From: a virus
IMG/VR virus record: IMGVR_UViG_3300028833_002847
DNA: 64,000 bases
Direction: 5' to 3' (one strand)
How positions within the stretch are numbered: position 1 is the stretch's first letter; every line of letters begins with the position of its first letter. The position numbers and the translations under genes are program-made. The notes beneath the pieces are model-generated. The model searched no databases, was not told the DNA's origin, and saw only the letters and a program-made list of their open reading frames with translations. This document shows positions 1 to 60,564 of the stretch, piece after piece.

Positions 1-926
1 CATAAGGATATACTTCATCAGGTCCTTGAATGTATTGTACTGGATCTGCAATTGTAATTTCTTTTTCATATACAGTATCATTTATAATATATTTAATTTT
101 AAAACTACCAATTGCACTTTCTAATATATTAATAGAACAAATTTGAGCATTTTGATAAGTATCTATTAATATGGCTTTTGAATCATTATCCGCAAGTACC
201 CATTGACCAGATTCATCATAATAATTTGAATTAATCATATAACTAATATTTGAATCTTGTTTAACTATATCTTGTCCAATAATTATATCATTTTCATCTT
301 CTATTGGGACAGAAGGTAAATTTTTATATTCATTGGTATAATCTTCTTTAATTACTAATTCAATAACTCCTGGAGTTGAAATAGAATCAATAGTTTGAAC
401 TTCTCAAGGTAGTCCCGCAATATTAATTTTAGTAAATCTGTGAAAATAATCTAATGTATTTTCATCCTTCTTAATATAGATTCTTCCAGATAAATTCATT
501 TCATTTAAATTAATACTGCGTTTTTGAAACCATCTAATATCAGTTTCAGTTGGACCTTGAAAATAGATTCAATAATTTTTATTATTAATATCAAGTTGAT
601 AACGACATCTTATAATTTGAGCTTTTAAATATGCTGTTTCTACTAAATCTGGAAGAAGAATCATTCAATAAGTTTGATCATCTAAACATTGAAATACATC
701 TCCAGGTTCAAGCTCACTACTAAAATCAACTGAAATTATTTTTTTGTCATAGTCCATTTTAATATTATCAGTATTTATTAAACAACGAACTATTCTTTTT
801 AATGGAGTTTTAATTCATCTACTATTATAGTCTGAAGCTAATGCTAAATGAAAACTCCATAGTTTAGTTTGTTTTATCCGACCATTAGAATTTCCACCCC
901 AATATTTTATTCTATTTTTTAAAGAA
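1..926 (-). CDS. Hypothetical structural-module protein. C-terminus runs off the window edge. Contains in-frame TGA read as sense
   Basis: Continuous minus-strand coding (ATG near 924-926). The six-frame track is fragmented only by TGA codons. Last gene of the late operon in the window. Confidence 0.35.
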
Positions 927-15499: not shown

Positions 15500-15850
15500 A
15501 TGTTAAAAATTGTAAAAAAAGAAAATAAAAATGAGAACAAGGATAATCGCACTCCAACTTATTTCAAAACTATTGATGATTGTGCTTTCTTTTGTGCTAC
15601 ATGCGGGTCTAGTCCTATTAAGGTAATAAAGGCTATGCTTACATGGAAGAAGCAGCACAAGGACAACGAGCATGCCTTGACAGACGTAGCAGAGCTAGCT
15701 TGCAGGAAAGCACAAGCTATGGATGATCAACACGCTATTACTACGATCACTAGAGTGTTATCAATTGTATGCTCTGCTGATAAGACTATTAACAAGGATG
15801 AACAGTTTATTTGGGAGGCAGAAGACCTCAGCGAGGGCGAAAAATTTTAG
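15500..15850 (+). CDS. Hypothetical protein, about 117 aa, with GC-enriched codon usage
   Basis: ATG at 15500 with RBS GAAGGAAGATATTTT-ATG. The track ORF 15383.. starts further upstream. Composition resembles the GC-rich paralogs. Confidence 0.35.
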   Translation: MLKIVKKENKNENKDNRTPTYFKTIDDCAFFCATCGSSPIKVIKAMLTWKKQHKDNEHALTDVAELACRKAQAMDDQHAITTITRVLSIVCSADKTINKDEQFIWEAEDLSEGEKF

Positions 15851-15945
15851 CACACACACGACAGGTTTGCAAGAACTTTTTTCTCCTACGCAAAGTCTAC
15901 ACAACATGACCTAAAAGAGATATGTGGAGGAATTGTGTGCACAAA
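15833..15945 (+). repeat. Copy A of the repeated ~90-110-bp leader/promoter element (GGCGAAAAWTTTTAKCACA...GTCAAGAG...GTGGAGGAATTGTGTG)
   Basis: Sequence shared with copies at 18158, 19113, 20228, 20408 and 21268. Confidence 0.5.
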
Positions 15946-16048
15946 GATTCTCGCGTCAGTTGGTGGGGAGTTGTAGTAATATATTAGTCAAGGAGAGGGA
16001 GAGAGAAAGTCAAAGGGACTTTCGCCCAATCCAAAGAGAGGAGCCACA

Positions 16049-16438
16049 ATGGCTACCACGAACAAGGTTACCCGCTTTACCGCACTGTCCACCCTCATTG
16101 AGTTCGCTAAGGCTAACGACTTTGATAACGCTGAGGTTATGGAGATTGCTGAGAAGATGCGTGACAAGCTCAAGACTCCTAGCAAGGCTGGTACTACTAC
16201 TCACACGGCTAAGAACAATGATAAGTTCTTTGATGCTCATATGAATGTGTTCGCGGATGGTGCTATCCTCACAGCTCGCGAATACGCAAACGCTATTGAT
16301 GGTTTCCCCGTGGATAATATGGGTCGTCCTAGCATCCACAAGGCTACTGCTATCCTCGTTCGTGCGGTCAATGAGGGTAAGCTGGTAAAGGTTCCTAGCG
16401 AGAAGAAGAGTGCTCCTATGAGCTACAAGCTCGCGTGA
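16049..16438 (+). CDS. GC-rich paralog family member A, 129 aa, unknown function
   Basis: About 60% aa identity to 20720..21108 and 27724..28122 (shared FPVDNMGRPS(V/I)HKATAILV...SPEKKS.PM.YKLA). About 48% GC against about 30% background. C/G-ending optimal-type codons. Confidence 0.6.
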   Translation: MATTNKVTRFTALSTLIEFAKANDFDNAEVMEIAEKMRDKLKTPSKAGTTTHTAKNNDKFFDAHMNVFADGAILTAREYANAIDGFPVDNMGRPSIHKATAILVRAVNEGKLVKVPSEKKSAPMSYKLA

Positions 16439-16520
16439 TTATCAGTCCTGAGCATGACTTAAAACTGCTCAATTCTTTTATATTAAAAAGAATAAAAAAT
16501 GAAAATTGAATAAATAAAAA

Positions 16521-16943
16521 GTGAAAATGAAAATCAAACAAAACAGATGTTCGGGGTGGGCGAAATTTTACTACAAACGCACGGAGAAGTCAAGTCTGAA
16601 AAACCTTCTTCACAAAATCTTCATAAATGAGCAGATCTCCCGCAATTGTGAAGAATCTATGAAGAGCCCAAAACTGTGCTATAATGTACTTAAGGACAAA
16701 GAGAAAGGATATGCAATGTATAACAACACTGTTTTTCTAGTAACTGTTAATCCTGAAATGTATTATGGTACTCCTTATCACTTTGCTTTTAAGAATAAAG
16801 ATAATGCTAAGAAGAAATTTGATGAACTTGTAGAAAAGCACAATCTTTATCATGATGGTAGTTATCGTGTAGCACAAAGAGATTCAGAAAGCTTGCATCA
16901 TGTGGACACTGTAGAACTTGATGAAATCTTTTATGATGATTAA
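16521..16943 (+). CDS. Hypothetical protein, 140 aa
   Basis: ORF in the track. Confidence 0.35.
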   Translation: MKMKIKQNRCSGWAKFYYKRTEKSSLKNLLHKIFINEQISRNCEESMKSPKLCYNVLKDKEKGYAMYNNTVFLVTVNPEMYYGTPYHFAFKNKDNAKKKFDELVEKHNLYHDGSYRVAQRDSESLHHVDTVELDEIFYDD

Positions 16944-17220
16944 TATGGTGGGACTTTAGTCCCATCATTCTTTTAACTAGTTGGGGATCCCAACAAAAAT
17001 GTGAAGATATTGTGAAAGACTTGACAACTAACCCGGAAATATGAGATAATATAATCATGGAACGGAGGAAGACCCGCCAAACACAACCTAGTCAAGTTGT
17101 AAAACTGACTACAGGGTTAGGAGATACCATGACTGCTATTTTTGTTATTATTATTATCATGATTATTATGACAAATAACAATAACGGTCCTTTTGGCTAT
17201 GCTTAGAAAGAAGGTTTATA

Positions 17221-17487
17221 ATGGAGCGTGAATTTTCCTGTTATCATCTTATTGGTTCTCTTACTGTACTTAAAGATAAACAAATTATTGCTATTCTTTT
17301 TGCTACAGATGCTTTTTATATTTCAGAATTTAAAGCTATTAATAAATACAAAGATTTAGTTTGGGAAATTCAAGGAGCTATGAATAATAATGTAGTATTA
17401 AACGGAGCTAAAATAAATGCAGAAACTATTCTCTATGGTAAGAAAGATGATAAAGAAGTTATCATCCGCAAACAAACATTCGAGTAA
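17221..17487 (+). CDS. Hypothetical small early protein
   Basis: ORF in the track. Confidence 0.3.
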   Translation: MEREFSCYHLIGSLTVLKDKQIIAILFATDAFYISEFKAINKYKDLVWEIQGAMNNNVVLNGAKINAETILYGKKDDKEVIIRKQTFE

Positions 17488-17587
17488 GTCGATCCCTGTG
17501 AAGATTCTGTGAAGAAAGAAAATCCTAGACAATTTGCCCAAAAGTGTAGTATAATATAATCAAGGTCAAAGAGAGAAAGGATTTCAC

Positions 17588-17797
17588 ATGAACACTCTGT
17601 ATGGTTTCCTCCTTGAAGGTGAAAATGTTGATGGTGACCTGATTAGCTCTTATGTGGAATTTGAAAATTGTGAAGATGCTACAGACGCTCTTAAACTAGC
17701 TGAGAAAGAAGCTGAAACTATCCTTAAAGATGAAGATGGTGGACATATTGATATCTTTGATGAGGATGGTAATTTTATGGTTGATGTAGAAGTTTAA
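17588..17797 (+). CDS. Hypothetical small acidic protein
   Basis: ORF preceded by TATAATATAAT...AAAGGA leader. Confidence 0.35.
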   Translation: MNTLYGFLLEGENVDGDLISSYVEFENCEDATDALKLAEKEAETILKDEDGGHIDIFDEDGNFMVDVEV

Positions 17798-17871
17798 ATA
17801 TTAGTCCTGAGCATGACAATAAAAGGCTCAACTTTTTATTTTATCGATCCCAAAAGAAAAGGAAAAAGATT

Positions 17872-18108
17872 ATGATTACTATTAAGTGCGGGAAGAGCTC
17901 CTACAATACTACTAACATTGATTCAGAAGCAACTTTTACAATTAATGATGATGCTAATCTAACAGAAGTATTTCTAGCTATTGTAAAAGCTACTCAATTT
18001 GAAGGTTATTCACTTGATAGTTGGCTTAATATTATTAATGAAATGAAAGATGAAATTGATAAGGAATATTCAATTCTTGATTTTCTATCTGATTCAGTTT
18101 ATGATTAA
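17872..18108 (+). CDS. Hypothetical small protein
   Basis: ORF with RBS AAAGGAAAAAGATT-ATG. Confidence 0.3.
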   Translation: MITIKCGKSSYNTTNIDSEATFTINDDANLTEVFLAIVKATQFEGYSLDSWLNIINEMKDEIDKEYSILDFLSDSVYD

Positions 18109-18157
18109 ATAATTTAAGAGAGTGAAGAGCTCTTCTATAATACTTTTAAGTATCTGC

Positions 18158-18262
18158 GACGGCGAAATATTTTATCACACGGCTGAGGAAATGTCAAGAG
18201 CTTCACAATATCTACACAATTAAGCAGATCTGCCCAAAATGTGAAGGAATTATGAAGATTAA
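18158..18262 (+). repeat. Copy B of the repeated leader/promoter element
   Basis: GACGGCGAAATATTTTATCACAC...ATGTCAAGAGCTTCACAATATCTACACAAT...GTGAAGGAATTATGAAG. Confidence 0.45.
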
Positions 18263-18305
18263 AATTAAGGCTTGACCGCACATAATGTAAGTAGTAATAT
18301 AATAA

Positions 18306-18506
18306 TTGTCAGTTGGTTACTACTATTGGAGATTAAACATGCTTACATCACTTGTTTTAACCTATGCTTGGTGCCTGACTGTAGTTTTTATTCTATTGCT
18401 TACTTTGTATCTTGATAACAAAAATTATTATCTTGGTGTTGGCTATTATATTATTATTGGTCTATTCTTTTTGATTATTACTGCGTGGATAAGCTACGTT
18501 AGTTAA
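18306..18506 (+). CDS. Small membrane protein, 66 aa
   Basis: Hydrophobic ORF with TATAATATAAT motif upstream. Confidence 0.3.
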   Translation: MSVGYYYWRLNMLTSLVLTYAWCLTVVFILLLTLYLDNKNYYLGVGYYIIIGLFFLIITAWISYVS

Positions 18507-18588
18507 TTCACAATTCCTTCACAATTCAAGATTGTCACTTGACAAACTCCCATCTCTTGTGTAATATAATAATTGACAGAAACAAGAG

Positions 18589-18792
18589 ATGGGAGTTACG
18601 ATGAAAGCTATGACACTCACAGAAGCTAAAGCTTATTACACTCCCATTATTCAAGCAGAGGTCAATCGTTGTAATATGCTTATTGAAAGCATTGAAGAAA
18701 CAATTGCAGAAATTGGTGAAGATGATGATATAATTCAACTTCTTAATGAAACTATTAATGAGCGTGATATTTGGGCTAGTGGATTGGAGTAA
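18589..18792 (+). CDS. Hypothetical small acidic protein
   Basis: ORF with TATAATATAAT motif upstream. Confidence 0.3.
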   Translation: MGVTMKAMTLTEAKAYYTPIIQAEVNRCNMLIESIEETIAEIGEDDDIIQLLNETINERDIWASGLE

Positions 18793-18797
18793 TAATT

Positions 18798-19019
18798 ATG
18801 TTAGTTTATATTGTAACTCTTCGGTATGAAGACTATTCTACTATCCTTGGAGTATATCATTCTTTTCCAACTGCATTTAAAGATATTTTAGAAGAACATA
18901 TTCATTGTCATGAACCTTTTACAGCTATTGATTGGAGTAACTGGAAAACAGATAAATCTCTTATTATTGAATTAGATGAATATAATGAAATTAAAATTAA
19001 ACAATATCAAGTTTGGTAA
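18798..19019 (+). CDS. Hypothetical small protein
   Basis: ORF in the track. Confidence 0.3.
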   Translation: MLVYIVTLRYEDYSTILGVYHSFPTAFKDILEEHIHCHEPFTAIDWSNWKTDKSLIIELDEYNEIKIKQYQVW

Positions 19020-19023
19020 TAAA

Positions 19024-19050
19024 AAAGAGCTTAACAGCTCTTTTTTTTTA
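19024..19050 (+). terminator. Rho-independent terminator
   Basis: AGAGCT-TAAC-AGCTCT hairpin followed by a T9 tract. Confidence 0.6.
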
Positions 19051-19112
19051 TATCTTAAAATAGAACATTTGTTCTATCGCGAGATCTTAAAACTAATACA
19101 ATGATTGATATC

Positions 19113-19200
19113 AGTGGCGGCGAAAATTTTAGCACATCGCGCAACAGAAGTCAAATGAAGATTTTGTGAAAACACAAAGTGAACACAATTGTCCCAATAG
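19113..19200 (+). repeat. Copy C of the repeated leader/promoter element
   Basis: GTGGCGGCGAAAATTTTAGCACATCGCG...AGTCAAATGAAG...GTGAACACAATTGTCCC. Confidence 0.45.
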
Positions 19201-19370
19201 TCCAGAAAGTAAGATAGTTTATACGGGTCAAATAAAGATTTTAATTATCAAAGCAAAAAACGATCGATCTACCTGCGGTTTCACAAAGTCTACACAATTA
19301 AAGAAAGTCGTTGACTTTCACACTAAAGAGCGTATACTAATAGCTGTCCAAAGGGAAACAACGAAAGGAA

Positions 19371-20081
19371 ATGGACATGCGTAAGGTTTTCGCTATTCTT
19401 GACATTGAGACTGTTACTGATGCTCGTTTGGCTTTTGATATTGCATGGATTGTTTGCGATTCTAAGGGTAACATCCTTGAGCGTTATAACGCTCTTGTGA
19501 GTGAAGTTGTTAATAGTCCTTTTGGTATGGCTTTCTTGCGTCGTGATTCTTTCATTAAAAATAAGGCTCAAATGTATATTGATGCTATTAATTTTAATGG
19601 TATTGATATTAAGTCCTTTGAGGATATCATGCAAGATTTTAATAATATCTCTGCTCGTTACAATGCTAAAACTGTTATGTGTGCTTATAATGCTAAGTTT
19701 GATTACAGTGTACTTAATGATAACGCTAGTTATATTTATGGCTATGGTGAGCAATTCTTTAATGATAATGTTGAAATTGTTGATATCATGACTATGGCAT
19801 TAGCTACTATTTGCGATACTAATAAATATATTCTTTGGTGCATTCAGAATGGCATGGTTACAGAAAAGGGTAATGTAAAGACTAATGCACAAACTGTTTA
19901 TGCTTACATGCTTGATGATATTAATTTTGTAGAAGCACATCACGCATTAGAAGATTGCGAAATTGAAAAGGATATATATTTTAAGGCTCGTAAGCGTAAA
20001 CAAAAGCAGCATAAGCAATTTGCAATGCCTATGTTTCATTGCAAGGAATGGAAAAAAGTACAATCTCGCAATGTAAAATAG
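19371..20081 (+). CDS. DEDDh-type 3'-5' exonuclease (DnaQ-like)
   Basis: Exo I ILDIETV, Exo II AYNAKFDYSVL and Exo III HHALEDCEI motifs. Confidence 0.65.
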   Translation: MDMRKVFAILDIETVTDARLAFDIAWIVCDSKGNILERYNALVSEVVNSPFGMAFLRRDSFIKNKAQMYIDAINFNGIDIKSFEDIMQDFNNISARYNAKTVMCAYNAKFDYSVLNDNASYIYGYGEQFFNDNVEIVDIMTMALATICDTNKYILWCIQNGMVTEKGNVKTNAQTVYAYMLDDINFVEAHHALEDCEIEKDIYFKARKRKQKQHKQFAMPMFHCKEWKKVQSRNVK

Positions 20082-20082
20082 C

Positions 20083-20116
20083 AATAAAAAAAGGGTAGGA
20101 TGTAAAAGTCCTACCC
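20083..20116 (+). terminator. Hairpin terminator candidate
   Basis: GGGTAGGA...TCCTACCC stem after the stop codon. Weak U-tract. Confidence 0.3.
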
Positions 20117-20227
20117 TAAATAGTATTAACCAAGAGAAGAAAGTATAATGTGCGGGAATTGTGTTGACTTTGTGAATTAACTGATTCTGGCTTGACAATA
20201 ATTTGTTCATATGAGATAATTATAATG

Positions 20228-20330
20228 GGGGAGAGATCGACCTGGACGAAAAATTATAACACATTCGCGAGGAAAAGTCAAGAGAAAATTTCAATCTACA
20301 CAGAATCTCCACATTTGCCCAGATCTGCCG
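20228..20330 (+). repeat. Copy D of the repeated leader/promoter element
   Basis: GACGAAAAATTATAACACA...AAAAGTCAAGAGAAAATTTCAATCTACACAGAATCTCCACATTTGCCCAGATCTGCCGCACATC. Confidence 0.45.
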
Positions 20331-20407
20331 CACATCAAAAATTTAATTAAAAAGCCCAGGACGATCGCATCAATATTTGAATAATTTCATATCAAAGTTT
20401 AAACATA

Positions 20408-20490
20408 TCAAAATATCAACGAGGACGAAAATTATACCACGTCCGCATGAGACTTGTCAAGAAAAATTTTTCTTCACATTTCCCGCACAA
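20408..20490 (+). repeat. Copy E of the repeated leader/promoter element
   Basis: GACGAAAATTATACCACG...TTGTCAAGAAAAATTTTTCTTCACATTTCCCGCACAAATC. Confidence 0.45.
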
Positions 20491-20719
20491 ATCAATCCTG
20501 AAACTAGTTCAAGATAAAAAGCTTAATAGTTCAAGATAAAAAGTTAATTAGTTCAATTTCAGACCAAAAAGTTCAATTCAATCAATTGTGGAGGAATTGT
20601 GTGGAAGGGAATTTCTCGTGCCTGTTGGGTCGAATCCATGATAATATATAGTTGTCCGAAGGGGAAAGAGAAAATTCCGAAAGGCGGAATGGTTCCCCTA
20701 GACAGAAAGAGGTGCCCTA

Positions 20720-21108
20720 TGGCTACCAAGTTCAACGTCACTCGCAAGCAGGCTCTTGAGTCCATCATTGAGTTTGCGAAGGCTAACGAGTACGATAACA
20801 CGGATGTGATGGATGTGCTCAACAACATGCTTTCTAAGCTTCAGACTACCTCTAAGCGTTCGGGTGAGACGGCAGCTCACAAGACTAACGCGAATATGCT
20901 TCAGAAGTATCTGAATCTCTTCGCGGATGGTGCTGTTCTTACGTCTCGTGAGTTTGCTAATAACGCGGATGGTTTCCCTGTTGATAACATGGGGCGTCCC
21001 TCTGTTCACAAGGCCACGGCCATTTTGGTGCAGGGCGTGAATGATGGAGTTCTTGTGAAGGTTTCGCCTGAAAAGAAGTCCAAGCCCATGGGGTACAAGT
21101 TGGCCTAG
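20720..21108 (+). CDS. GC-rich paralog family member B, 129 aa
   Basis: Paralog of 16049..16438 and 27724..28122. Codon-optimised and GC-rich. Confidence 0.6.
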
Positions 21109-21267
21109 TCAATGGAGTTTGGGGAGTCTCCACAAAATCCCCACATATTAAATTTTGAATGGTCTGGCATCAAAAGTCAGACCATTTTCTTTCAAATTTT
21201 ATTAGAACACGTGTTTGGGCGGAAGATCTCAGCTAGTATCAAGATTTTAGTTAAATGGTTGATCGGT

Positions 21268-21372
21268 GTTGGCGAAAATTTTATCATATGTGCGACCAGT
21301 TGTCAAGAAGAAATTTTCAATTCACAGAGTCTACATAAGTTATCCTAATTGTGCAGGTTTTGTGAAGTATCA
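21268..21372 (+). repeat. Copy F of the repeated leader/promoter element
   Basis: GGCGAAAATTTTATCATATG...GTTGTCAAGAAGAAATTTTCAATTCACAGAGTCTACATAAG...TTTTGTGAAG. Confidence 0.45.
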
Positions 21373-21384
21373 AGATTACAACTA

Positions 21385-21625
21385 GATTGGGCTCTGTTGG
21401 GTGTATAATAAAGTCACAGACGAGGCACAGGGGATGATAGTCCTACGCAAGCGTGAACCGGGTGGTCTGGTTAATGGGCATTGTGCCGGCAGGTCAAGAC
21501 AGAAAATAGCTACAGTCAGGTCTAAAGTCTGCGTGAGCGAAATTTTTGGCAGCTGCATAGGCAAATTTTCTATCGAATGGCAAGGTTATAGGCGATTCAA
21601 CCATAGGCCCAAAATATAGGCAAAA
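21385..21625 (+). ncRNA. Candidate GC-rich structured ncRNA (alternatively a 72-aa GC-rich ORF)
   Basis: A TATAAT at about 21406 is followed by a 55% GC segment unlike the local background. No RBS for ORF 21401..21619. Many internal complementary stretches. Confidence 0.3.
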
Positions 21626-21639
21626 ATAATAAAATTTAC

Positions 21640-21830
21640 TTGACAACTGATAGATTTTTATGATATAATAAAAATAATATGTCAATTTTAGTTGAAAATC
21701 AAGAATTTTTAACAGAAAAATGAAAATTATACTTGACAACTGACTAATTTTCATGATAAAATGAAAGTTTATACCTAATTTTGTGCGCATTTATAACAAA
21801 AAAGAGCCCTTTCGGACTCTTTCTAGTGTT
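21640..21830 (+). promoter_or_regulatory. Two tandem sigma70/sigmaA-type promoters (TTGACA-18-TATAAT at 21640-21669; TTGACA-18-TGnTAAAAT at 21733-21763). They drive short non-coding transcripts ending at a hairpin near 21800-21825
   Basis: Consensus hexamers with 18-bp spacers. No ORF downstream. AAGAGCCCTTTCGGACTCTT hairpin shared with the convergent gene. Confidence 0.45.
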
Positions 21831-21846
21831 TTTATTAATATTTTTA

Positions 21847-22245
21847 CTAAACTGCTTGATAACGGAATGGATCGTTCTTCTTCTCCTTCTCAAGACGCTG
21901 AATCAGGCCAAGCTCAACACCAAGCTTGAGAACTGCGGTTGCCTTAGGGGCAGAAGGAATCTCATCAAAGAGCTCCTTAATCTCACCAGCAGTCTTAGGC
22001 TCAACCAGCGCAGGAAGAATAAGCTCTACAAGCTTCTCATTCTCCTCACGCTTCTTGGAGTTACCAGTGGTACGAGAGCGGTTAAGCTTCTGATACATGT
22101 TACCAAGGACATTGAGGAGGTCCTCAACAGTAGCGTCTTGATTCTCTGCTTGAACAGCTTCGACAAACTCATCCTGATACATCTCGACGTAGTTACGAAC
22201 GATAGCAATTGCAGCCTTCTGAGTGATAGCGTTCTTAGTAGTCAT
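21847..22245 (-). CDS. GC-rich codon-optimised protein, 132 aa, unknown function, on the opposite strand
   Basis: Complete ORF. Its leader (reverse strand) carries the same TATTATATAT...GAAAGGGAGAGAG motif as the GC-rich paralogs. Confidence 0.5.
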   Translation of the reverse strand: MTTKNAITQKAAIAIVRNYVEMYQDEFVEAVQAENQDATVEDLLNVLGNMYQKLNRSRTTGNSKKREENEKLVELILPALVEPKTAGEIKELFDEIPSAPKATAVLKLGVELGLIQRLEKEKKNDPFRYQAV

Positions 22246-22477
22246 ACTAACCTTCTTTCTTTGATTGGGAGTCAGACTCCTTTTGTCTGATTACTCTCTC
22301 CCTTTCGTTATATATATAATATCATGATTTAGACCCGGTTGTATACGAAAAACTTTGAAAGCTGGTTAAAAAAAATTGTTTCAGATTGTACAGAGAATTG
22401 CTATGCAGGTGTTAAAATGGAGATGCACTCCCCACCAAATACACACCATCAAATTTTTATCCCCAACTAAAACATAT

Positions 22478-22560
22478 TATCAAATCTTAAACATTTAATT
22501 AAAACATCTTGTCAAATCTTAAATTTTAATTAAAATATATTATTAATGTTTAGAAATTTT
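22478..22560. repeat. Tandem direct repeats, about 29 bp x2 (AAAACATMTTRTCAAATCTTAAAYWTTTAATT)
   Basis: Two adjacent near-identical units in an ORF-free AT-rich stretch. Confidence 0.4.
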
Positions 22561-29528: not shown

Positions 29529-29593
29529 TTTTTCTTGTCTATTGGTCTAAGAATATTATATAATATACTTATAGAGTGAAAGGAGATATTCTA

Positions 29594-30565
29594 ATGACCA
29601 AGGATTTCTTTAAGTATAACCATGTTATTCGTTATGGTAAGCAAGATGTAGACGGTTATCTTAATGGTACTGTCTATGTTGAGCCTAAGATTGATGGTAC
29701 TTCGTCTGCTATCTATTGGGATGGACAGGACTTTGTTGTTCAGTCTCGCAATCGTATTATTACTCTTGAAAAGGATAACGCAGGTTTCTGTGATTATATT
29801 CTTAATATTACTGATGGTGTTGCAGATGTAATTCGAGATTTTTGTAAGGCACATCCTAACATTGTTGTTTATGGAGAATGGATTGGTGGCTGTTTTGGCC
29901 GCAAGTTCATCGGAACTATTAAGTATTATCTTCGTGGTGGTTTTTATGTATTTGACCTTCGAGATGCTAATATAGACCGTTCAGATATGGAAGCCTTTAC
30001 TGTAGACCATAAGGGTTTTTATACTCCTGATGATGATATTTTCATTGAACTCCGCAATCTTATTCCAGATAATGTCGTTCCAGTAATTGCTAAGCTTGAA
30101 AATCCAACTTTTGATGAACTTCTTCAGCTTGTAGAAGATTGTCATTATATTGTTCCTGAGAACGAGCACGTTGAAGGTGTAGTTCTTAAGAATTATGCTT
30201 ATCGTGATAAGTATGGGCATTTCCAAATCGCTAAGATTGTCCGCAAGGAATATGTAGAATCTAAGGGACAAAAGCATCATGTGGTAGTTGAGCCTGGAGC
30301 AGATGAAAAGGCTATTATTGCTGATTGTATGCTTAATGCTAAGCTCGAAAAGACTAAGAATAAGGTTCTTATCGCTCTTGGAGAAGATGAGTGGAAGAAT
30401 GAGGGTAAGTTTATTGGTTTCTTTCTTAACCTTATTTGGGATGATTTTATTAATGAAGATTTTGATAATCAACTTCTAAAGCGTTATAATTATCCAACTC
30501 TAAACTTTGCTCAGCTTAAGAAGCTTGCATTTATTCGAGGACGAGAGTTTCTTGGACTCTGTTAA
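29594..30565 (+). CDS. ATP-dependent RNA/polynucleotide ligase (covalent nucleotidyltransferase superfamily)
   Basis: Motif I KxDG (VEPKIDGTS), a downstream VVYGEWIG motif and a C-terminal Lys-rich region. RBS AAAGGAGATATTCTA-ATG. The track ORF starts earlier at an alternative codon. Confidence 0.55.
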   Translation: MTKDFFKYNHVIRYGKQDVDGYLNGTVYVEPKIDGTSSAIYWDGQDFVVQSRNRIITLEKDNAGFCDYILNITDGVADVIRDFCKAHPNIVVYGEWIGGCFGRKFIGTIKYYLRGGFYVFDLRDANIDRSDMEAFTVDHKGFYTPDDDIFIELRNLIPDNVVPVIAKLENPTFDELLQLVEDCHYIVPENEHVEGVVLKNYAYRDKYGHFQIAKIVRKEYVESKGQKHHVVVEPGADEKAIIADCMLNAKLEKTKNKVLIALGEDEWKNEGKFIGFFLNLIWDDFINEDFDNQLLKRYNYPTLNFAQLKKLAFIRGREFLGLC

Positions 30566-56097: not shown

Positions 56098-56172
56098 TTC
56101 CTCATGGTGTAATTGGCAACACAATGGATTCTGGTTCCATTATTTCACGTTCGAGTCGTGATGAGGAAGCCA
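56098..56172 (+). tRNA. tRNA-Gln (anticodon CUG), CCA encoded
   Basis: Cloverleaf built by hand: acceptor TTCCTCA/TGAGGAA, D GTGT/ACAC, anticodon stem ATGGA/TCCAT with loop TTCTGGT, T-arm TCACG-TTCGAGT-CGTGA. Confidence 0.6.
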
Positions 56173-56208
56173 CGCCCTTGTGACGGAATTGGCAGACGTA
56201 GTGGACTC

Positions 56209-56990
56209 AAACAAATTTGAGCACTTAGATTTGGAAACTGCTAAGTGAATGCTGGCTAATTCGGTGAAACTCTATTTAAGTAGACAACGCCGAGCTAAAT
56301 TTTTAGGGCAGACCCATATAATTTAGTCTTCCTAAATTTTATTTATATTGGATAAGTGAGACATGGAAGGATAAAAATGGGTCTAAAAAAATATTCTAAA
56401 GAATGGTTAGAAGAGCTTTGTAAAGATAGTTTTTCTTATGCAGAAGTATTAAGAAAAGCAGGTAGAAAACAAGGCGGCGGTGCTCAAAAAACTTTGAGAG
56501 AAAAAATTGAGTTATACAATATTGATATTTCTCATTTTACAGGACAAAATTGGAGAAAAGGAAAAACTAAAAAATCTGATAGTAGACTTTTACAGCAAGG
56601 ATTAAATCAAGAAAAATATCTCCTTGAAGAAGTTTTTGTAAAAAATAGTCCTGTTACTCAAAAAGTTTTAAGAGGGTATATCGAAAGACATTCTGTATTA
56701 GAATATAAATGTCAAAATTGTGGATGTAATGGTAATTGGCAAGGTGGAAAAATTGCTCTTGAAGTTCATCATATTAATGGTGATAATAAAGACAATAGAT
56801 TAGAAAATCTACAGTATTTATGTCCAAATTGCCATGCTTTAACTGATACTTATTGTGGCAAAAATAAAAAGTCCTAAAATAAATGTGTAGAGACTATATA
56901 CCAGCCTCCTAAGTTGAAAAATATGGAGAAGACATAGTCCAGACTACAACTACTTTTAGTAGGCTATGGTGACATAGTGTAGTAAGAAAA
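56209..56990 (+). mobile_element. Group I intron candidate within tRNA-Leu(CAA), encoding an HNH homing endonuclease
   Basis: Lies between the tRNA halves. Conserved group-I P7 strands and P9-like hairpins in the 3' part. ORF in a peripheral loop. Confidence 0.5.
56377..56877 (+). CDS. HNH homing endonuclease (intron-encoded)
   Basis: CQNCGCNG...LEVHHINGDNKDNRLENLQYLCPNCH HNH motif. RBS GGAAGGATAAAA-ATG. No TGA. Confidence 0.65.
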   Translation: MGLKKYSKEWLEELCKDSFSYAEVLRKAGRKQGGGAQKTLREKIELYNIDISHFTGQNWRKGKTKKSDSRLLQQGLNQEKYLLEEVFVKNSPVTQKVLRGYIERHSVLEYKCQNCGCNGNWQGGKIALEVHHINGDNKDNRLENLQYLCPNCHALTDTYCGKNKKS

Positions 56991-57077
56991 TCCACGGGCT
57001 TCGGCCGTAAGAGTTCGAATCTCTTCAGGGGCACCAAAATGTTAATAATAATTGACGTGATAGTTAAAACAGTTACT

Positions 57078-57153
57078 TCTCTGAGATTAGCTCAATTGGT
57101 AGAGCGTTTGTTTTACGTACAAAATGTAATAGGTTCGAATCCTATATTTTAGA
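57078..57153 (+). tRNA. tRNA-Val (anticodon UAC)
   Basis: D-arm AGCTCAATTGGTAGAGC, anticodon arm TTTGT-TTTACGT-ACAAA, T-arm ATAGG-TTCGAAT-CCTAT, acceptor with G-U pairs. No CCA. Confidence 0.55.
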
Positions 57154-57190
57154 TTTTATACCTGTTTTATAGATTTCCGTCAATTTTAAT

Positions 57191-57286
57191 ACTCCCATAG
57201 TGTAATGGTAGCACAGTGGTCTTCAAAACCATAGCAACCTGTGTCCAAAGCAGGCGGTCTCTGTTCGAATCGGAGTGGGAGTGCCA
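57191..57286 (+). tRNA. Opal-reading tRNA: anticodon UCA, class-II architecture (long variable arm), G73, CCA encoded
   Basis: Acceptor ACTCCCA/TGGGAGT, D GTGT/GCAC, anticodon stem GTGGT/ACCAT with loop CTTCAAA, 26-nt variable arm with a CCTG/CAGG stem, T-arm CTCTG-TTCGAAT-CGGAG. Confidence 0.6.
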
Positions 57287-57546
57287 TTGTAAATAAAGCG
57301 TGATAGTAAGAAAGTTACTTCGCACACAATGCAACAGACTCTTAATCTGTCAATAACACTTTCTTTATTATTTCCGCTAATATTAAATATTTATTGGTGA
57401 GAATAAATATTTAGTAAGATGATTGTAAGAAAGATACTTCAACTCATAAACAGTTACGGCATAGAGCTTTCTTTCTTAAAAATATCTCTTGCATTAGTTT
57501 TATTAATAATTTGACGTGATAGTTGAAATAGTTACTTCATATTTAA

Positions 57547-57619
57547 CTCAATGGGTAGAGTAATTATCTTGTAAATAATCTGTTATTGGTTCGAATCCAA
57601 TGGTATGTGCTTTTCACTA
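57547..57619 (+). tRNA. tRNA-Thr-like (anticodon UGU). The acceptor pairing is imperfect
   Basis: D-arm ACTCAATGGGTAGAGT, anticodon arm ATTAT-CTTGTAA-ATAAT, T-arm ATTGG-TTCGAAT-CCAAT. Mismatch at pair 1:72. Confidence 0.4.
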
Positions 57620-57647
57620 TTTCATAAATTTCCGTCAATTTTTTTAT

Positions 57648-57723
57648 GGGACTTTAGCTCAGTTGGTAGAGCAGAGGACTCTTAATCCTAAGGTCATGGG
57701 TTCAAACCCCATAAGTCCCACCA
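57648..57723 (+). tRNA. tRNA-Lys (anticodon CUU), CCA encoded
   Basis: GGGACTT-TA-GCTCAGTTGGTAGAGC..., loop CTCTTAA, T-arm ATGGG-TTCAAAC-CCCAT, AAGTCCC-A-CCA. Confidence 0.6.
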
Positions 57724-57727
57724 TTAA

Positions 57728-57800
57728 CGGGATGTAGGGTAATTGGTAACCCCCTGCATTTGGGATGCAGTTATTGCACGTTCGAGTCGTGTCATCCCGA
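57728..57800 (+). tRNA. tRNA-Pro (anticodon UGG)
   Basis: Acceptor CGGGATG/CATCCCG, anticodon arm CTGCA-TTTGGGA-TGCAG, T-arm GCACG-TTCGAGT-CGTGT. Confidence 0.55.
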
Positions 57801-57839
57801 GATTTTATTTATTTATTTAAAATATTCTTAAGAGGAAAA

Positions 57840-58415
57840 ATGGGAGTAAAATTATCACAAGAAGAAGTTATTAGAAGAATTAAAAAAAATTTTAAGCAAG
57901 ATGTATCTCTTATTAGTGAATACAAAAATAAAAGAAGTAAAGTTAAATTACATTGTAATGAATGTGGATATGAATGAGAAGCTTCTGCTCAAACGGTTAT
58001 TGATAATAATAGTTGTCATGTTTGTCCTAATTGTAATAATATAAAACAAAAATTTCATTGTGCTTATTGTAATAAAGAAATTTATAGAATTCCTTCTGAG
58101 ATAAAAAGAAATAAAAGTGGTTATTTTTATTGTTCAAAAACATGTGGAAATTTACATAAAAATTTATTAAGAAAAACATCAGGAGAATGAAATAATTCTA
58201 AAAATTATAGATTAAAAGCTTTTGAAAAATTAGAGCATTGTTGTGTTTCTTGTGGATGAAATGAAGATGAAAGAATATTAGAAGTTCATCATATAGATGA
58301 AAATAGAGATAATAATAATATAGATAATTTATGTATTCTTTGTCCTACATGTCATAGAAAATTAACTTCTCATTATTATATATTGACACCCTCTTTTAAA
58401 GTAATTTTAAAATAA
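57840..58415 (+). CDS. Free-standing HNH endonuclease containing 3 in-frame TGA codons (first at 57975-57977)
   Basis: CVSCG-TGA-NEDERILEVHHIDENRDNNNIDNLCILCPTCH HNH motif. Frame continuous across the TGA codons. Confidence 0.6.
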
Positions 58416-58421
58416 TTTAAC

Positions 58422-58500
58422 GGGCTGAGGGACTGCTAGGAGTGGTCACCTGTCCTGCAAACAGGAAAGCAGCTGGGTTCGAATCCCAGTCGGTCTACCA
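58422..58500 (+). tRNA. tRNA-Ala (anticodon UGC) with G3:U70 and A73, CCA encoded
   Basis: Acceptor GGGCTGA/TCGGTCT including the G3-U70 identity pair. Anticodon arm CCTGT-CCTGCAA-ACAGG. T-arm CTGGG-TTCGAAT-CCCAG. Long D-loop. Confidence 0.5.
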
Positions 58501-58548
58501 AAAATTTTTTGGACAAAAATGAATAATTTATAGTATAATTTTTATATT

Positions 58549-58622
58549 AATATTAAATTCTCTTGTAGCTCAAAAGTAGAGCACACGACTGATAATCGTG
58601 AGACGAAGGAGCGTTACCTTCC
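58549..58622 (+). tRNA. tRNA-Ile (anticodon GAU) with an atypical T-loop, CCA encoded
   Basis: TCTCTTG-TA-GCTCAAAAGTAGAGC-A-CACGA-CTGATAA-TCGTG ... GAAGG-AGCGTTA-CCTTC-CGAGAGA-A-CCA. Confidence 0.5.
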
Positions 58623-58623
58623 G

Positions 58624-58709
58624 AGAGAACCATGGGTCAGCTTCCGAGTTGGAGAACGGAGACAGTCTGTAAAACTGTTGCTTTAATGCTGAGTAGGTTC
58701 GAATCCTGC
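58624..58709 (+). tRNA. tRNA-Tyr (anticodon GUA), class II, CCA encoded
   Basis: Acceptor GGGTCAG/CTGACCC, D TCCG/CGGA, anticodon arm ACAGT-CTGTAAA-ACTGT, long variable arm, T-arm GTAGG-TTCGAAT-CCTGC. Confidence 0.6.
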
Positions 58710-58729
58710 CTGACCCACCAACATTAAAA

Positions 58730-58804
58730 TTGGAAGGTAGCTCAATGGTAGAGCCATCGGCTGTTAACCGATCTGTTGTGGGTTCGAGCCCCACTCTTCC
58801 AGCC
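58730..58804 (+). tRNA. tRNA-Asn (anticodon GUU), CCA encoded
   Basis: Anticodon arm ATCGG-CTGTTAA-CCGAT. T-arm GTGGG-TTCGAGC-CCCAC. Confidence 0.6.
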
Positions 58805-58807
58805 ATA

Positions 58808-58884
58808 TGGTTGTATAGCTCAGTAGGTAGAGCAAAGGCCTGAAAAGCCTTGTGTCGTTAGTTCGATTCTAACTACAACCACCA
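58808..58884 (+). tRNA. tRNA-Phe (anticodon GAA), CCA encoded
   Basis: GGTTGTA-TA-GCTCAGTAGGTAGAGC-A-AAGGC-CTGAAAA-GCCTT ... TACAACC-A-CCA. Confidence 0.65.
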
Positions 58885-58890
58885 AATTAT

Positions 58891-58968
58891 GGGACTGTAG
58901 CTTAGCTGGCTTAAAGCGTCGGACTGTCTCTCCGAAGATCGTGGGTTCGAATCCCATCAGTCTCGCCA
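58891..58968 (+). tRNA. tRNA-Asp (anticodon GUC), G73, CCA encoded
   Basis: Anticodon arm TCGGA-CTGTCTC-TCCGA. T-arm GTGGG-TTCGAAT-CCCAT. Acceptor GGGACTG/CAGTCTC. Confidence 0.6.
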
Positions 58969-58972
58969 ATAT

Positions 58973-59046
58973 GGAGTCTATAGTATAATGGTTAATTACG
59001 ATTGGCTGTGGCCCAATAAATGAAAGTTCGATTCTTTCTAGATTCC
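58973..59046 (+). tRNA. tRNA-His (anticodon GUG) with G-1:C73. No CCA
   Basis: Extra 5' G pairs with C73. Anticodon arm ATTGG-CTGTGGC-CCAAT. T-arm GAAAG-TTCGATT-CTTTC. Confidence 0.5.
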
Positions 59047-59117
59047 CGGAATGCTTTGTCTAAAACCTTCACGTGGTGCATTCTGATTTCGACTAATATT
59101 AGACAATATATTATAAA

Positions 59118-59201
59118 GGGCTTGTGATGGAATTGGCAGACATGATTGCCTTAGAAGCAATTGCTTTATGCGTGGAAGTTCGAGTCTTCTCAGGCCCACC
59201 A
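59118..59201 (+). tRNA. tRNA-Leu (anticodon UAG), class II, A73, CCA encoded
   Basis: GGGCTTG-TG-ATGGAATTGGCAGACAT-G-ATTGC-CTTAGAA-GCAAT-long arm-GGAAG-TTCGAGT-CTTCT-CAGGCCC-A-CCA. Confidence 0.6.
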
Positions 59202-59220
59202 AAAGAACAAAGGAGACAAT

Positions 59221-60560: not shown

Positions 60561-60564
60561 AGAT

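Follow-up and report, generated by a model that had tools for sequence, protein, structure and literature searches.

Repeated, probable leftward promoters in the early region

The repeated element in the early region of this phage occurs in seven full copies (c1 to c7), all on the minus strand amid rightward early genes, and its anatomy makes it very probable that these copies are promoters. They were identified in a window that comprises the whole 64,000-nucleotide stretch of viral DNA. Read 5' to 3' on the minus strand, the unit consists of a heptad box, a -35 element (TTGACA/T) 3–14 nt past the box, a GC-rich spacer of 17–18 nt ending in TRTGn (directly 5' of the -10 in most copies), a -10 element (TAAAAT/TATAAT), and a start region, T2-4-CGYC-N6-GAT, whose internal spacing is fixed. 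The distance of 17–18 nt between the two hexamers is found in all seven copies. Judged by sequence, the hexamers match the consensus of host sigma-70/sigma-A and are joined by the TRTG -16 motif of Gram-positive bacteria; they are not those of a phage-specific promoter class, one of the options named in a preliminary description of the repeat. Like Gram-positive promoters with the extended -10, the copies combine TTGACA/T, a 17–18-nt spacer, TAAAAT/TATAAT, and, in most cases, TRTGn. Unlike typical promoters of this type, they are orphans with no gene downstream, face opposite to the local genes, recur seven times, and share a conserved start region (TTTCGYC-N6-GAT). The element is an ordinary-looking strong bacterial promoter facing backwards, a tidy regulatory design and no new kind of element.

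All six copies listed in the preliminary description are present, with first blocks starting at 15836, 18161, 19119, 20245, 20424, and 21271; a seventh full copy (16550–16625) had been overlooked, and a partial eighth lies at 21528–21552. The three blocks quoted there align as conserved columns in a multiple alignment of the copies, in which 23 columns are invariant, and the conserved columns coincide exactly with the box, -35, TG, -10, and TTTCGYC..GA. In reverse complement, the first block reads TRTGn-TAAAAT (the extended -10) followed by the start region, the second (GTCAAGA) is the -35 element, and the block TCTACACA is a tandem heptad box, TGTGnAG-N4-TGTGAAG. The reported palindromic core, AAAATTTT, does exist: it is formed by the -10 hexamer TAAAAT and a run of T after it.

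In c1 (15827–15903, minus strand, as are all copies), the box lies at 15886–15903, the -35 TTGCAA at 15867–15872, and the -10 TAAAAT at 15844–15849, with a 17-nt spacer ending in TGTGC and the start region TTTTCGCC-CTCGCT-GAG at 15827–15843. This copy overlaps the stop and last codons of the plus-strand gene 15500–15850, which is coding (substitutions are biased to the third codon position). Copy c2 (16550–16625; box 16608–16625, -35 TTGACT 16588–16593, -10 TAAAAT 16565–16570, start region TTCGCC-CACCCC-GAA 16550–16564) points at the 3' end of winged-helix paralog 1. In c3 (18152–18218), 3 nt separate the box (18201–18218) from the -35 TTGACA (18192–18197), and TGTGA-TAAAAT (-10 at 18169–18174) and the start region ATTTCGCC-GTCGCA-GAT (18152–18168) follow. 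The box of c4 (19110–19188) is degenerate (about 19172–19188); its -35 TTGACT is at 19149–19154, TGTGC-TAAAAT has its -10 at 19126–19131, and the start region TTTCGCC-GCCACT-GAT spans 19110–19125. Copy c5 (20236–20313; box 20296–20313, -35 TTGACT 20276–20281, TGTGT-TATAAT with -10 at 20253–20258, start region TTTTCGTC-CAGGTC-GAT 20236–20252) faces a plus-strand promoter at 20192–20220, the inferred start sites being about 19 bp apart. It stands in tandem with c6 (20415–20489; box 20472–20489, -35 TTGACA 20455–20460, 18-nt spacer, TGG-TATAAT with -10 at 20431–20436, start region TTTCGTC-CTCGTT-GAT 20415–20430). Finally, c7 (21262–21337; box 21320–21337, -35 TTGACA 21301–21306, TATGA-TAAAAT with -10 at 21278–21283, start region TTTCGCC-AACACC-GAT 21262–21277) points at the 3' end of paralog 2. 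The partial eighth copy (21528–21552, minus strand; plus strand TCTGCGTGAGCGAAATTTTT) consists of the start-region motif only; as no usable -35 or -10 is present, this is a decayed copy or else a coincidental resemblance.

Spurious similarity of AT-rich DNA does not account for the repeat. The composite TTGNNN-N16-18-TAWAAT-W1-4-TCGYC occurs seven times on the minus strand and never on the plus strand of the window, compared with an expectation of 0.01 (maximum 1) from 100 first-order Markov simulations, and in a scan of the whole IMG/VR collection, multi-copy matches were confined to relatives of this phage. An independent sigma-70 scan placed six copies among the best sites in 12–24 kb, five of them with the TG extension: one scored 12/12 (c6, the top of the list, with TG), three 11/12 (c3, c5, and c7, each with TG), and two 10/12. 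Other sites of at least 11/12 are nearly missing from 1–30 kb.

On a plus-strand reading, the blocks would instead serve the rightward genes as promoters of a phage-specific class, as an element common to their 5' leaders, or as a small RNA in several copies, which we consider extremely unlikely. The copies do lie upstream of rightward genes, and the promoter at 20192–20220 could transcribe c5 and c6 as a leader. However, the TTGTCA taken earlier for a plus-strand -35 has no -10 partner at 16–18 nt on that strand, where the sigma-70 scan lists no promoter using these blocks; its reverse complement pairs with the minus-strand -10 in seven of seven copies. Placement in 5' leaders may hold for c5 and c6 only, since most copies are upstream of the rightward promoters and past the preceding gene's terminator; c2, c4, and c7 each have a terminator on one side and the next promoter on the other, and are therefore outside any leader. 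A repeated small RNA is not supported either: RNAalifold returned 0 consensus pairs among the copies on either strand, Rfam gave no match to the element at gathering or at E ≤ 1, and beyond the conserved first ~16 nt, there is no sequence conservation among copies or orthologues. What stands of the earlier proposal is a common promoter and regulator site, with GTG(G/A)AGGAATT(G/A)TG as the candidate site, although its strand, class, and position have changed.

Conservation among related phages

About seven related rumen-phage contigs provided 37 orthologous copies, none of which differs in strand. Variable columns made up a fraction of 0.02 in each hexamer (a figure inflated by ascertainment, as orthologues were gathered with a pattern that itself dictates some of the hexamer identity), 0.22–0.26 in the spacer, 0.39 in +10 to +30, and 0.72 in +31 to +60. 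Across the contigs, the hexamers are fixed while spacers and downstream RNA vary, and one orthologue without TCGYC (in L035) still has TTGACT-17-TAAAAT. At the level of sequence, these comparisons show purifying conservation of the hexamers and the promoter anatomy.

It is conceivable that the start-region motif (TCGYC-N6-GAT) and the heptad boxes simply bind one or more proteins that control rightward promoters or give the early region its organisation, and that the likeness to a promoter is incidental or non-productive (e.g., RNA polymerase parking or a decoy). For example, the distance between the motif and the -10 varies (2–4 T), as it would for an independent site; the motif persists alone at 21528–21552 and in the relative L003; and heptad boxes are also found without leftward promoters. 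However, the -35, the 17–18-nt spacer, the TG, and the -10 are kept together in all seven copies while the spacer sequence drifts, a signature of selection on RNA polymerase recognition and not on an unrelated binding site. We therefore regard a purely protein-binding role as quite unlikely.

Gene content around the promoters is less stable. Between the window and the relative L002, breakpoints fall at regulatory elements, one of them at 16666, where the D box ends. A segment of three genes (18232–19086), missing from L002, is bounded by AGATCT at 18226–18231 and 19082–19087, and the exonuclease promoter segment 19311–19379 is present three times in L002. This is reminiscent of the PeSLs (promoter-early stem-loops), mobile regulatory cassettes of T4-type phages (PMC2839356, PMC4122927): in both, the small ORFan genes of a hyperplastic region are separated by conserved strong early-promoter cassettes, at which the indel and replacement breakpoints of close relatives fall. 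PeSLs consist of a unidirectional promoter and its own terminator stem-loop, whereas here we find a bidirectional promoter pair with heptad operators, in another phage lineage, that of an uncultivated rumen phage of apparently Firmicute-type host. If such recombinogenic cassettes served to shuffle small early genes, the leftward promoters could be roleless relics of divergent pairs, and in L037, a divergent relative, inverted boxes in this layout do drive a true pair of divergent genes (7742-/7762+). Nevertheless, this explanation is unlikely, as all seven leftward promoters are kept with intact hexamers in every relative covering them, despite gain and loss of the surrounding genes, and relics in a genome of 30% GC would be expected to decay like the spacers. 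Recombinational and transcriptional roles of the cassettes can coexist.

Heptad boxes and probable bidirectional cassettes

The double heptad TGTGAAG-N4-TGTGAAG (at most 3 mismatches) occurs 23 times compared with 6.1 expected, a number reached in 0 of 100 shuffles, and 18 of the 23 fall within 15.9–21.4 kb. Copies c1, c2, c3, c6, and c7 are each placed back-to-back with a rightward promoter, that of the next gene, whose heptad box is the same but inverted; therefore, each such intergenic region is a bidirectional promoter cassette, and its two arms share one roughly dyad-symmetric operator. The divergent gene pair of L037, driven from inverted boxes in this layout, also speaks for this reading. 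In the c2 and c3 cassettes, the arrangement is box-N7-AGATCT-N8-box, with AGATCT midway between the boxes, 7 and 8 nt from them (16633–16638), or central between them (18226–18231).

The rightward arms are all on the plus strand. The partner of c1, which serves paralog 1 (15923–15983; box TGTGGAGGAATTGTGTG 15923–15940, 37 nt, -10 TAATAT 15978–15983), and the paralog 2 promoter downstream of c6 (20587–20647; box TGTGGAGGAATTGTGTGG 20587–20604, about 35–38 nt, -10 GATAAT/TAATAT at about 20640–20647) both have no good -35. The partner of c2 (16647–16685) has its box (16647–16664) in the -35 position, 15 nt from TGTGC-TATAAT (-10 at 16680–16685). In the partner of c3 (18240–18303), the box (18240–18257) precedes TTGACC (18272–18277) and a -10 at about 18295–18303, and in that of c7 (21350–21409), 36 nt separate the box (21350–21367) from TATAAT (21404–21409); a GC-rich stretch with no ORF follows. 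Two rightward early promoters have no leftward partner: 17000–17050 (box 17000–17017, 3 nt, TTGACA 17021–17026, 18 nt, GATAAT 17045–17050), with the box-to-(-35) geometry seen in c3, and 17497–17555 (perfect double box 17497–17514, TAGACA 17526–17531, TATAAT 17550–17555). The promoter head-on to c5 (20160–20220) has a box at 20160–20177, TTGACA at 20192–20197, and TGA-GATAAT with its -10 at 20215–20220. An inverted-orientation box (19279–19296) lies 14 nt upstream of the exonuclease promoter (19279–19338; TTGACT 19311–19316, 16 nt, TATACT 19333–19338). Since only some rightward promoters are paired with a leftward one (the TTTCGCC type at 3 of more than 10 in L037), the leftward partner is not needed for rightward promoter function.

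Across leftward and rightward promoters of the window and two relatives, box-to-(-10) distances group at 15–16, 25–27, and 34–37 nt, a phasing of ~11 bp (about 15, 26, and 36 nt). Pho-box and other OmpR/PhoB-type operators likewise consist of two direct repeats of 7 bp set 4 bp apart, for a period of 11 bp, and one promoter class here, with repeats at the -35 position 15 nt 5' of an extended -10, resembles the T4 MotA box, an activator site that replaces the -35. Other boxes here are shifted by ~11 and 22 bp, which leaves them on the same face of the helix. The sequence is unrelated to either system, no response regulator is apparent, and boxes are in addition found here as inverted pairs and upstream of promoters with a consensus -35. 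In phage phi29, the divergent promoters A2c and A2b–A3 are separated by an array of regulator sites and controlled by protein p4. By analogy only, a strong consensus promoter in one direction and a promoter without a -35 in the other suggest a switch in our cassettes as well. In phi29, both arms drive genes, in a single region with p4-type inverted repeats, while the repeats here are direct heptads.

One heptad-binding protein, bound head-to-tail on one helix face, could co-regulate both arms. Three GC-rich paralogs of the phage are the leading candidates, on circumstantial and model-based grounds: paralog 1 (16049–16438, plus strand, 129 aa, predicted C-terminal winged-helix domain), paralog 2 (20719–21108, plus strand, 129 aa, the same predicted fold, 60% identity to paralog 1), and paralog 3 (21847–22245, minus strand, 132 aa, 26% identity to paralog 1). 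The predicted winged-helix fold has a pLDDT of 83.7, and the best Foldseek matches are MarR, Z-alpha, RTP, and Fur, with E-values of 0.03 or worse. These candidates have no receiver domain and no Pfam match.

Possible role of the leftward promoters

The promoter identity of the copies is well supported; their function we infer. Start sites, terminators, and the activity of the promoters themselves are predicted. On the minus strand downstream, there is no ribosome-binding site or ORF, and the leftward path leads to the preceding gene, where it meets either the 3' end or the bidirectional terminator. Bidirectional terminators follow ~75–165 nt on for c4, c5, and the L037 copies: the predicted c4 transcript (~75–105 nt) ends at 19021–19046, and c5 has a predicted minus-strand terminator at 20117–20092. 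The picture of a short RNA is not uniform, because no minus-strand terminator lies near c1 or c2. A strong convergent promoter is found past the 3' end of each winged-helix paralog, namely c2, c7, and, for paralog 3, two strong plus-strand promoters (21640–21669 and 21733–21762) aimed at its 3' end; in L037, there are more leftward promoters after each winged-helix gene. The conserved terminator motif (TCCTGAGCATGA..TAAAA..GCTCA) is an element separate from the promoter cassette.

We lean modestly towards a model, its standing a compromise between promoter identity and role, in which the bidirectional early-promoter cassettes are co-regulated and cis-antisense or interfering transcription arises from their leftward arm. 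Taken alone, the assignment of the role to antisense, interference, or insulation rather than another function is tentative. Host RNA polymerase would fire leftward at c1 to c7 and produce short non-coding transcripts, ~75–165 nt where a bidirectional terminator follows and ~340 nt for c6 by read-through of c5. These would run antisense to the early gene that precedes them, over its 3' end or its terminator, and transcription from c5 and c3 would meet a rightward promoter head-on. The outcome would be cis-antisense control and transcriptional interference, with the leftward arm shielding each cassette from read-through and dampening the upstream gene. All three winged-helix paralogs would be targeted in this way.

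Interference between convergent promoters, such as pR and pL of coliphage 186, has been reviewed (PMC5001618). In the lambda PO/oop type of cis-antisense control, a promoter past the 3' end of a gene is likewise aimed back at it. The predicted c4 and c5 transcripts, short and ending at a bidirectional terminator, and the face-to-face promoters at c5 and c3 are similar to these systems, although the antisense RNA and interference are here predictions from sequence alone. Lambda and 186 have one such promoter at the lysis–lysogeny switch, whereas here there are seven in a 5.5-kb lytic early module with one operator type.

The leftward transcripts might also act in trans, as small RNAs that use a conserved C-rich 5' end (CGCC..C.C.GAU) to pair with ribosome-binding sites rich in purines, or as primers, through promoter-driven R-loops that start replication in AT-rich DNA just downstream. 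Firmicute small RNAs with C-rich seed regions are known, conservation here is limited to the first ~16 nt of the RNA, and AT-rich tracts and short repeats (TTGATAT, three times) lie downstream of c2 and c6. However, the copies have no fold or terminator in common, the RNA bodies are unrelated from copy to copy, and neither replication genes nor iteron arrays are associated with them, making a trans or primer role very unlikely. A plain promoter or interference model leaves the start region TTTCGYC-N6-GAT unexplained, and its conservation hints at an extra factor or a function of the RNA 5' end.

Copies and promoter anatomy of the repeated element

The preliminary description had quoted six copies of a repeated element with three shared blocks in the early region. 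Direct reading of 15.8-21.4 kb together with a repeat scan recovered the three blocks at all six positions (c1, 15827..15903; c3, 18152..18218; c4, 19110..19188; c5, 20236..20313; c6, 20415..20489; and c7, 21262..21337), and the repeat scan added a seventh full copy at 16550-16625 (c2) and a partial eighth at 21528-21552. In a MAFFT alignment of the seven copies, 23 columns are invariant and cluster into separate blocks. The similarity does not stem from AT-rich noise.

Read on the minus strand, the blocks of all seven copies make up a complete bacterial housekeeping promoter. The block "(A/T)GTCAAGA" is the reverse complement of TCTTGAC(A/T), i.e., of a -35 element TTGACA/T. The block "GRCGAAAAWTTTTAKCACA" is the reverse complement of TGTGn-TAAAAT-TTTCGYC, which comprises the TRTG "-16" motif of Gram-positive bacteria, the -10 element, and a conserved start region that runs on as N6-GAT, and "TCTACACA" is part of CTTCACA-N4-CTACACA, the reverse complement of a tandem heptad box (TGTGnAG-N4-TGTGAAG). 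The -35 hexamers are TTGACA in three copies, TTGACT in three, and TTGCAA in one, all near the sigma-70/sigma-A hexamer TTGACA. The -10 is TAAAAT in five copies and TATAAT in two, and the spacer of 17 nt (six copies) or 18 nt (c6) lies within the 17 +/- 1 nt of this promoter class. The TGn of TG/TRTG-type sigma-A promoters stands immediately 5' of the -10 in six of the seven copies; c2 has TGTAG, with a 2-nt offset. A generic sigma-70 scan that was blind to the promoter idea placed six of the element sites among the best in 12-24 kb, with scores of 12/12 (one site), 11/12 (three), and 10/12 (two) and a TG extension in five of the six; in the rest of 1-30 kb just three sites attain 11/12. On this sequence evidence, the repeated units very probably are minus-strand promoters of the host sigma-A/sigma-70 type.

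The earlier reading had taken TTGTCA as a plus-strand -35 element and had offered a repeated small RNA as one explanation of the repeats. Neither held up. The hexamer has no -10 partner on the plus strand, and the sigma-70 scan lists no such promoter. RNAalifold found 0 consensus base pairs in the repeated unit on either strand, and Rfam gave no match at the gathering threshold and only weak, unrelated ones at E<=1. A plus-strand promoter, 5' leader, or sRNA was therefore rejected. By eye, c6 has a local stem (GGACG/CGTCC) that shows one compensatory change among orthologues, but this stem does not extend to the other copies. Downstream of all copies the minus strand has no RBS and no conserved ORF. 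The neighbouring genes all lie on the plus strand, and third-position-biased substitutions relative to related contigs support the coding status of these ORFs, most of which have no Pfam or PHROG match. With all local genes on the plus strand, the seven promoters would fire against the direction of the genes. The case also illustrates that conserved intergenic blocks need to be read on both strands.

Other known sites were compared with the conserved core. A sigma-54 promoter was rejected by inspection, as 13 nt instead of 12 separate the GG and GC elements and the GC lacks conservation. The Spo0A "0A box" TGNCGAA is matched at the conserved CGAA core by c7 only; the conserved form is (G/C)GNCGAAA, without the initial T, and canonical boxes are not enriched (24 in the window, one in the region). 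Resemblance to a CodY box extends to a half-site only. The start region TTTCGYC-N6-GAT is left unexplained by the mechanism proposed below; it may serve as a second operator or as a feature of the RNA 5' end. In plus orientation, the start-region motif TTTCGCCC recurs at 16020-16027 (+), directly 3' of a small hairpin (AAAGTC..GACTTT) in the 5' leader of the GC-rich gene at 16049..16438 (+).

Conservation in related phages

A composite pattern, TTGNNN-N16-18-TAWAAT-W1-4-TCGYC, occurs seven times on one strand of the window and not once on the other, against 0.01 expected from 100 Markov simulations of the window. Across all IMG/VR contigs it matched 26 stretches; multiple matches per contig were confined to relatives of this phage, and the remaining 20 single matches are unrelated generic promoters. 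Segment 15500-21800 had no blastn match among INPHARED phage genomes. Protein-anchored and pattern searches yielded about seven related contigs from rumen-type metagenomes (IMG/VR 3300028591, 3300032038, and 3300031853; Ga0247608-11, Ga03106xx, and Ga03265xx).

Orthologous copies are on the same strand in every case, and no orthologue covering a site has lost the promoter. Among 37 orthologous copies, which fall into seven groups, 0.02 of the columns vary in the -35 hexamer and 0.02 in the -10 hexamer, values that overstate conservation because part of the hexamer identity is built into the collecting pattern. The variable fraction is 0.11 in TCGYC, 0.05 in GAT, and 0.22-0.26 in the spacer, and it rises to 0.39 at +10..30 and 0.72 at +31..60. 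The sole copy outside the collecting pattern, c4 of the related contig L035, keeps TTGACT-17-TAAAAT. Conservation therefore lies in the site recognized by RNA polymerase and in the first ~16 nt rather than in the body of an RNA. A trans-acting sRNA or a primer role is unlikely and has no specific support. That the sites serve only as operators, or as decoys for RNA polymerase, is improbable, as such a model gives a poorer account of the joint conservation of -35, spacing, TG, and -10.

Cassette architecture and heptad boxes

The double heptad TGTGAAG-N4-TGTGAAG was found 23 times in the window at <=3 mismatches (6.1 expected), and 18 of these matches fall within 15.9-21.4 kb. Each of copies c1, c2, c3, c6, and c7 lies back-to-back with a rightward promoter that belongs to the next gene and bears a separate heptad box of opposite orientation. 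An insertion of ~90 nt separates c4 from the exonuclease promoter, and c5 has no rightward box beyond a central AGATCT. Copies c2 and c3 share the arrangement box-N7-AGATCT-N8-box, which forms a dyad of ~58 bp from one -35 region to the other. The same inverted-box layout drives a genuine divergent gene pair in L037, a more divergent relative, where each winged-helix gene is followed by additional leftward promoters whose start region is a variant, TTTGCGGCC.

For leftward and rightward promoters in the window and two relatives, the interval between box end and -10 shows three size classes (15-16, 25-27, and 34-37 nt), which implies a phasing of ~11 bp, as expected of a protein confined to one helix face. 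In the 15-nt class the box takes the place of the -35 (16647 in the window; 8386 and 11747 in L037). In the 26-nt class it lies 3 nt from a consensus -35, in c3 and in the rightward promoter at 17000. With two 7-bp direct repeats and a 4-bp gap, the heptad box resembles a Pho box or OmpR/PhoB-type operator. A box that replaces the -35 about 10-15 nt from the -10, as at such operators, is seen in the 15-nt class; for most boxes the distance is 26 or ~36 nt. Where a rightward promoter has a leftward partner, a good -35 is often lacking (partners of c1, c2, c6, and c7); the unpaired ones at 17021, 17526, 18539, and 20192 have a near-consensus -35.

Several other motifs occur in these cassettes. 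In the early module, AGATCT recurs in the interval of inverted box pairs or a short way 5' of rightward boxes (16634, 16986, 17491, 18227, 19083, 19262/19266, and 20322). GATC is strongly depleted in the whole window (56 sites vs ~180-210 expected); it is nearly absent from 22-56 kb (~6 sites) and is kept in 0-22 kb. In the divergent relative (L006/L037), most rightward heptad boxes have a GC-rich CCGGCRC, with or without GATC, on their 5' side. At 880-1450 of L006 (= L037 4880-5450), two leftward family promoters are paired with another repeated box, TACCGTTCAC / TACCGCTCAC, present in several copies, rather than with TGTGAAG heptads. Firmicute LexA (Cheo)-like GAAC-N4-GTTC sites lie near c2, c4, and c7 (16540-16553, 19062-19075, and 21204-21217), 18 such boxes occur window-wide vs 7 expected at <=2 mismatches, and a perfect one, CGAACTGACGTTCG, is found at L037 13221-13234. 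Those near c2, c4, and c7 are downstream of the copies at inconsistent distances, and LexA boxes were rejected as part of the unit.

Candidate regulators

Three GC-rich paralogs of 129, 129, and 132 aa are encoded in this region (paralog 1, 16049..16438 (+); paralog 2, 20719..21108 (+); and paralog 3, 21847..22245 (-)). The proteins have no significant match in Pfam or PHROGs, a sequence-profile search of the PDB gave nothing significant, and only close homologues were found among 5.8 billion proteins. An AlphaFold model from the paralog alignment (mean pLDDT 83.7) has a helical N-terminal part and a C-terminal helix-turn-helix with a beta-wing. Its top Foldseek matches in the PDB are almost all winged-helix DNA binders of the MarR, Z-alpha, RTP, Fur, and ArsR types, at E-values of 0.03 or worse, so that the fold search weakly indicates a winged helix. 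Head-to-tail dimers of winged-helix proteins classically bind tandem 7+4-bp repeats, for example at Pho boxes. By this analogy, the paralogs are candidate regulators that may bind the heptad boxes. They have no receiver domain, and no OmpR/PhoB-family response regulator was identified in the window.

Predicted leftward transcripts and their possible role

In all seven copies the promoter lies beyond the 3' end of a gene and is directed back at that gene, as in oop-like cis-antisense RNAs. Copy c1 overlaps the stop codon of gene 15500-15850, to which its transcript would be antisense; c2 is directed at the 3' end of paralog 1 and c7 at that of paralog 2. No terminator follows c1 or c2. The predicted transcript of c4 would meet a bidirectional terminator (19021-19046) after ~75-105 nt, and that of c5, with c6 in tandem behind it, a minus-strand terminator (20117-20092) after ~160 nt; bidirectional terminators follow two L037 copies after ~75-80 nt. 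Copy c5 and the rightward promoter at 20192-20220 point at each other, with putative starts ~19 bp apart, and c3 is opposed by a weaker promoter at 18114-18141. Two strong tandem consensus promoters on the plus strand, at 21640-21669 (TTGACA-18-TATAAT) and 21733-21762 (TTGACA-18-TAAAAT), likewise face the 3' end of paralog 3, which is encoded on the minus strand.

These observations may be accounted for if each unit supplies the leftward arm of a bidirectional early-promoter cassette. The host polymerase with sigma-A would then start leftward. Its non-coding product would be antisense to the preceding gene, at the 3' end or the terminator, or the polymerase would collide with a facing promoter. 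The presumed outcome is cis-antisense control and transcriptional interference, through which cassettes would be insulated from read-through and upstream genes damped, notably the three regulator paralogs. A single heptad-binding protein might set both arms jointly. We regard this antisense, interference, and insulation role as tentative, somewhat short of an even chance; the promoter anatomy, strand, conservation, and geometry, and the absence of an ORF or fold, are direct observations. A broader scheme is speculative and rather unlikely: a dedicated "counter-transcription" system encoded by the phage, in which the seven leftward promoters and the two rightward ones that face paralog 3 police each early cassette and the three regulator paralogs by cis-antisense or collision, heptad-binding winged-helix proteins switch them all, the 5' tag CGYC-N6-GAU gives the RNAs a common fate or forms a second operator, and the resulting multi-node circuit times the shut-off of early genes.

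A different explanation, that the units mark cassettes for recombination, has real support. A breakpoint between the window and the close relative L002 at 16666 is the end of a box; a three-gene segment (18232-19086) with AGATCT at both edges (breakpoints 18231/19087) is missing from L002; and the segment with the exonuclease promoter and RBS (19311-19379) is present in three copies there. However, the strict retention of all seven leftward promoters speaks for their having a role themselves. The end and the start of two IMG/VR contigs of a single sample (3300028591_000460 and _004246) fall within 18944-19070, which points to strain heterogeneity at this cassette.

Two further repeats lie near paralog 3. 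Just upstream of the promoters at 21640 and 21733, four ATAGGC repeats occur within 65 bp (21557-21621 (+); 19 in the window), and this array may be a different type of operator for another paralog. Upstream of the paralog 3 gene, 22465-22559 (+) holds three tandem repeats of ~32 nt (AACTAAAACATATTATCAAATCTTAAACATTT). A GC-rich stretch of ~230 nt (21412-21640 (+)), downstream of the rightward promoter 21404-21409, includes the partial eighth copy. No convincing ORF or RBS and no Rfam match were found in this stretch, and a structured RNA is not supported, as it folds no better than shuffles (z = +0.72).

Relation to known systems and significance

The PeSLs of T4-type phages are defined as a promoter plus a stem-loop (PMC2839356). 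The cassettes described here resemble them in that breakpoints between the window and L002 coincide with cassettes, and in having a strong sigma-70-like early promoter within a hyperplastic region of small ORFans. In contrast to PeSLs, the repeated unit carries no conserved hairpin, and terminators are separate and of varied type.

The individual parts, namely sigma-A promoters, direct-repeat operators, and antisense promoters, are ordinary. The arrangement is unusual: seven orphan consensus-strength promoters oppose gene flow in a 5.5-kb lytic early module, with a common phased heptad operator and a conserved start region, and each winged-helix gene copy is targeted by a convergent promoter. 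A repeat that had no explanation becomes a concrete map of early-module regulation, open to testing, for large rumen phages of an uncultivated clade, with seven predicted leftward starts, about ten rightward promoters, one phased heptad operator, and three winged-helix proteins as candidate regulators. Should the leftward promoters prove active, unusually dense antisense or convergent transcription would insulate and time phage early genes. Since the cassettes mark changes in gene content between close relatives, they also bear on the shuffling of phage "ORFan" regions. On the practical side, they could provide compact consensus-strength bidirectional promoters for low-GC hosts.

Other features of the window

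A conserved, repeated gene-end motif, TCCTGAGCATGAC.TAAAA..GCTCA followed by a T-run, occurs at 16440-16478 and 17799-17837 and in many copies in L006/L037. It is likely a terminator (stem TGAGCA/TGCTCA, 11-nt loop) that has been reused after many unrelated small genes. A ROOL RNA (RF03087, 297.6 bits) at 61217-61864 (+) adjoins a bank of ~25 tRNA genes (56098-63807 (+)). The window also encodes an 803-aa protein with Major Vault Protein shoulder and vault-repeat domains (PF11978, 3e-22; 30803-33214 (+)), a TROVE/Ro60-like RNA-binding protein (PF05731, 7e-16; 41089-42540 (+)), and an RNA ligase (29576-30565 (+)). Together with the ROOL RNA and the tRNAs, these make a gene set that is rich in RNP and RNA-repair functions for a phage.
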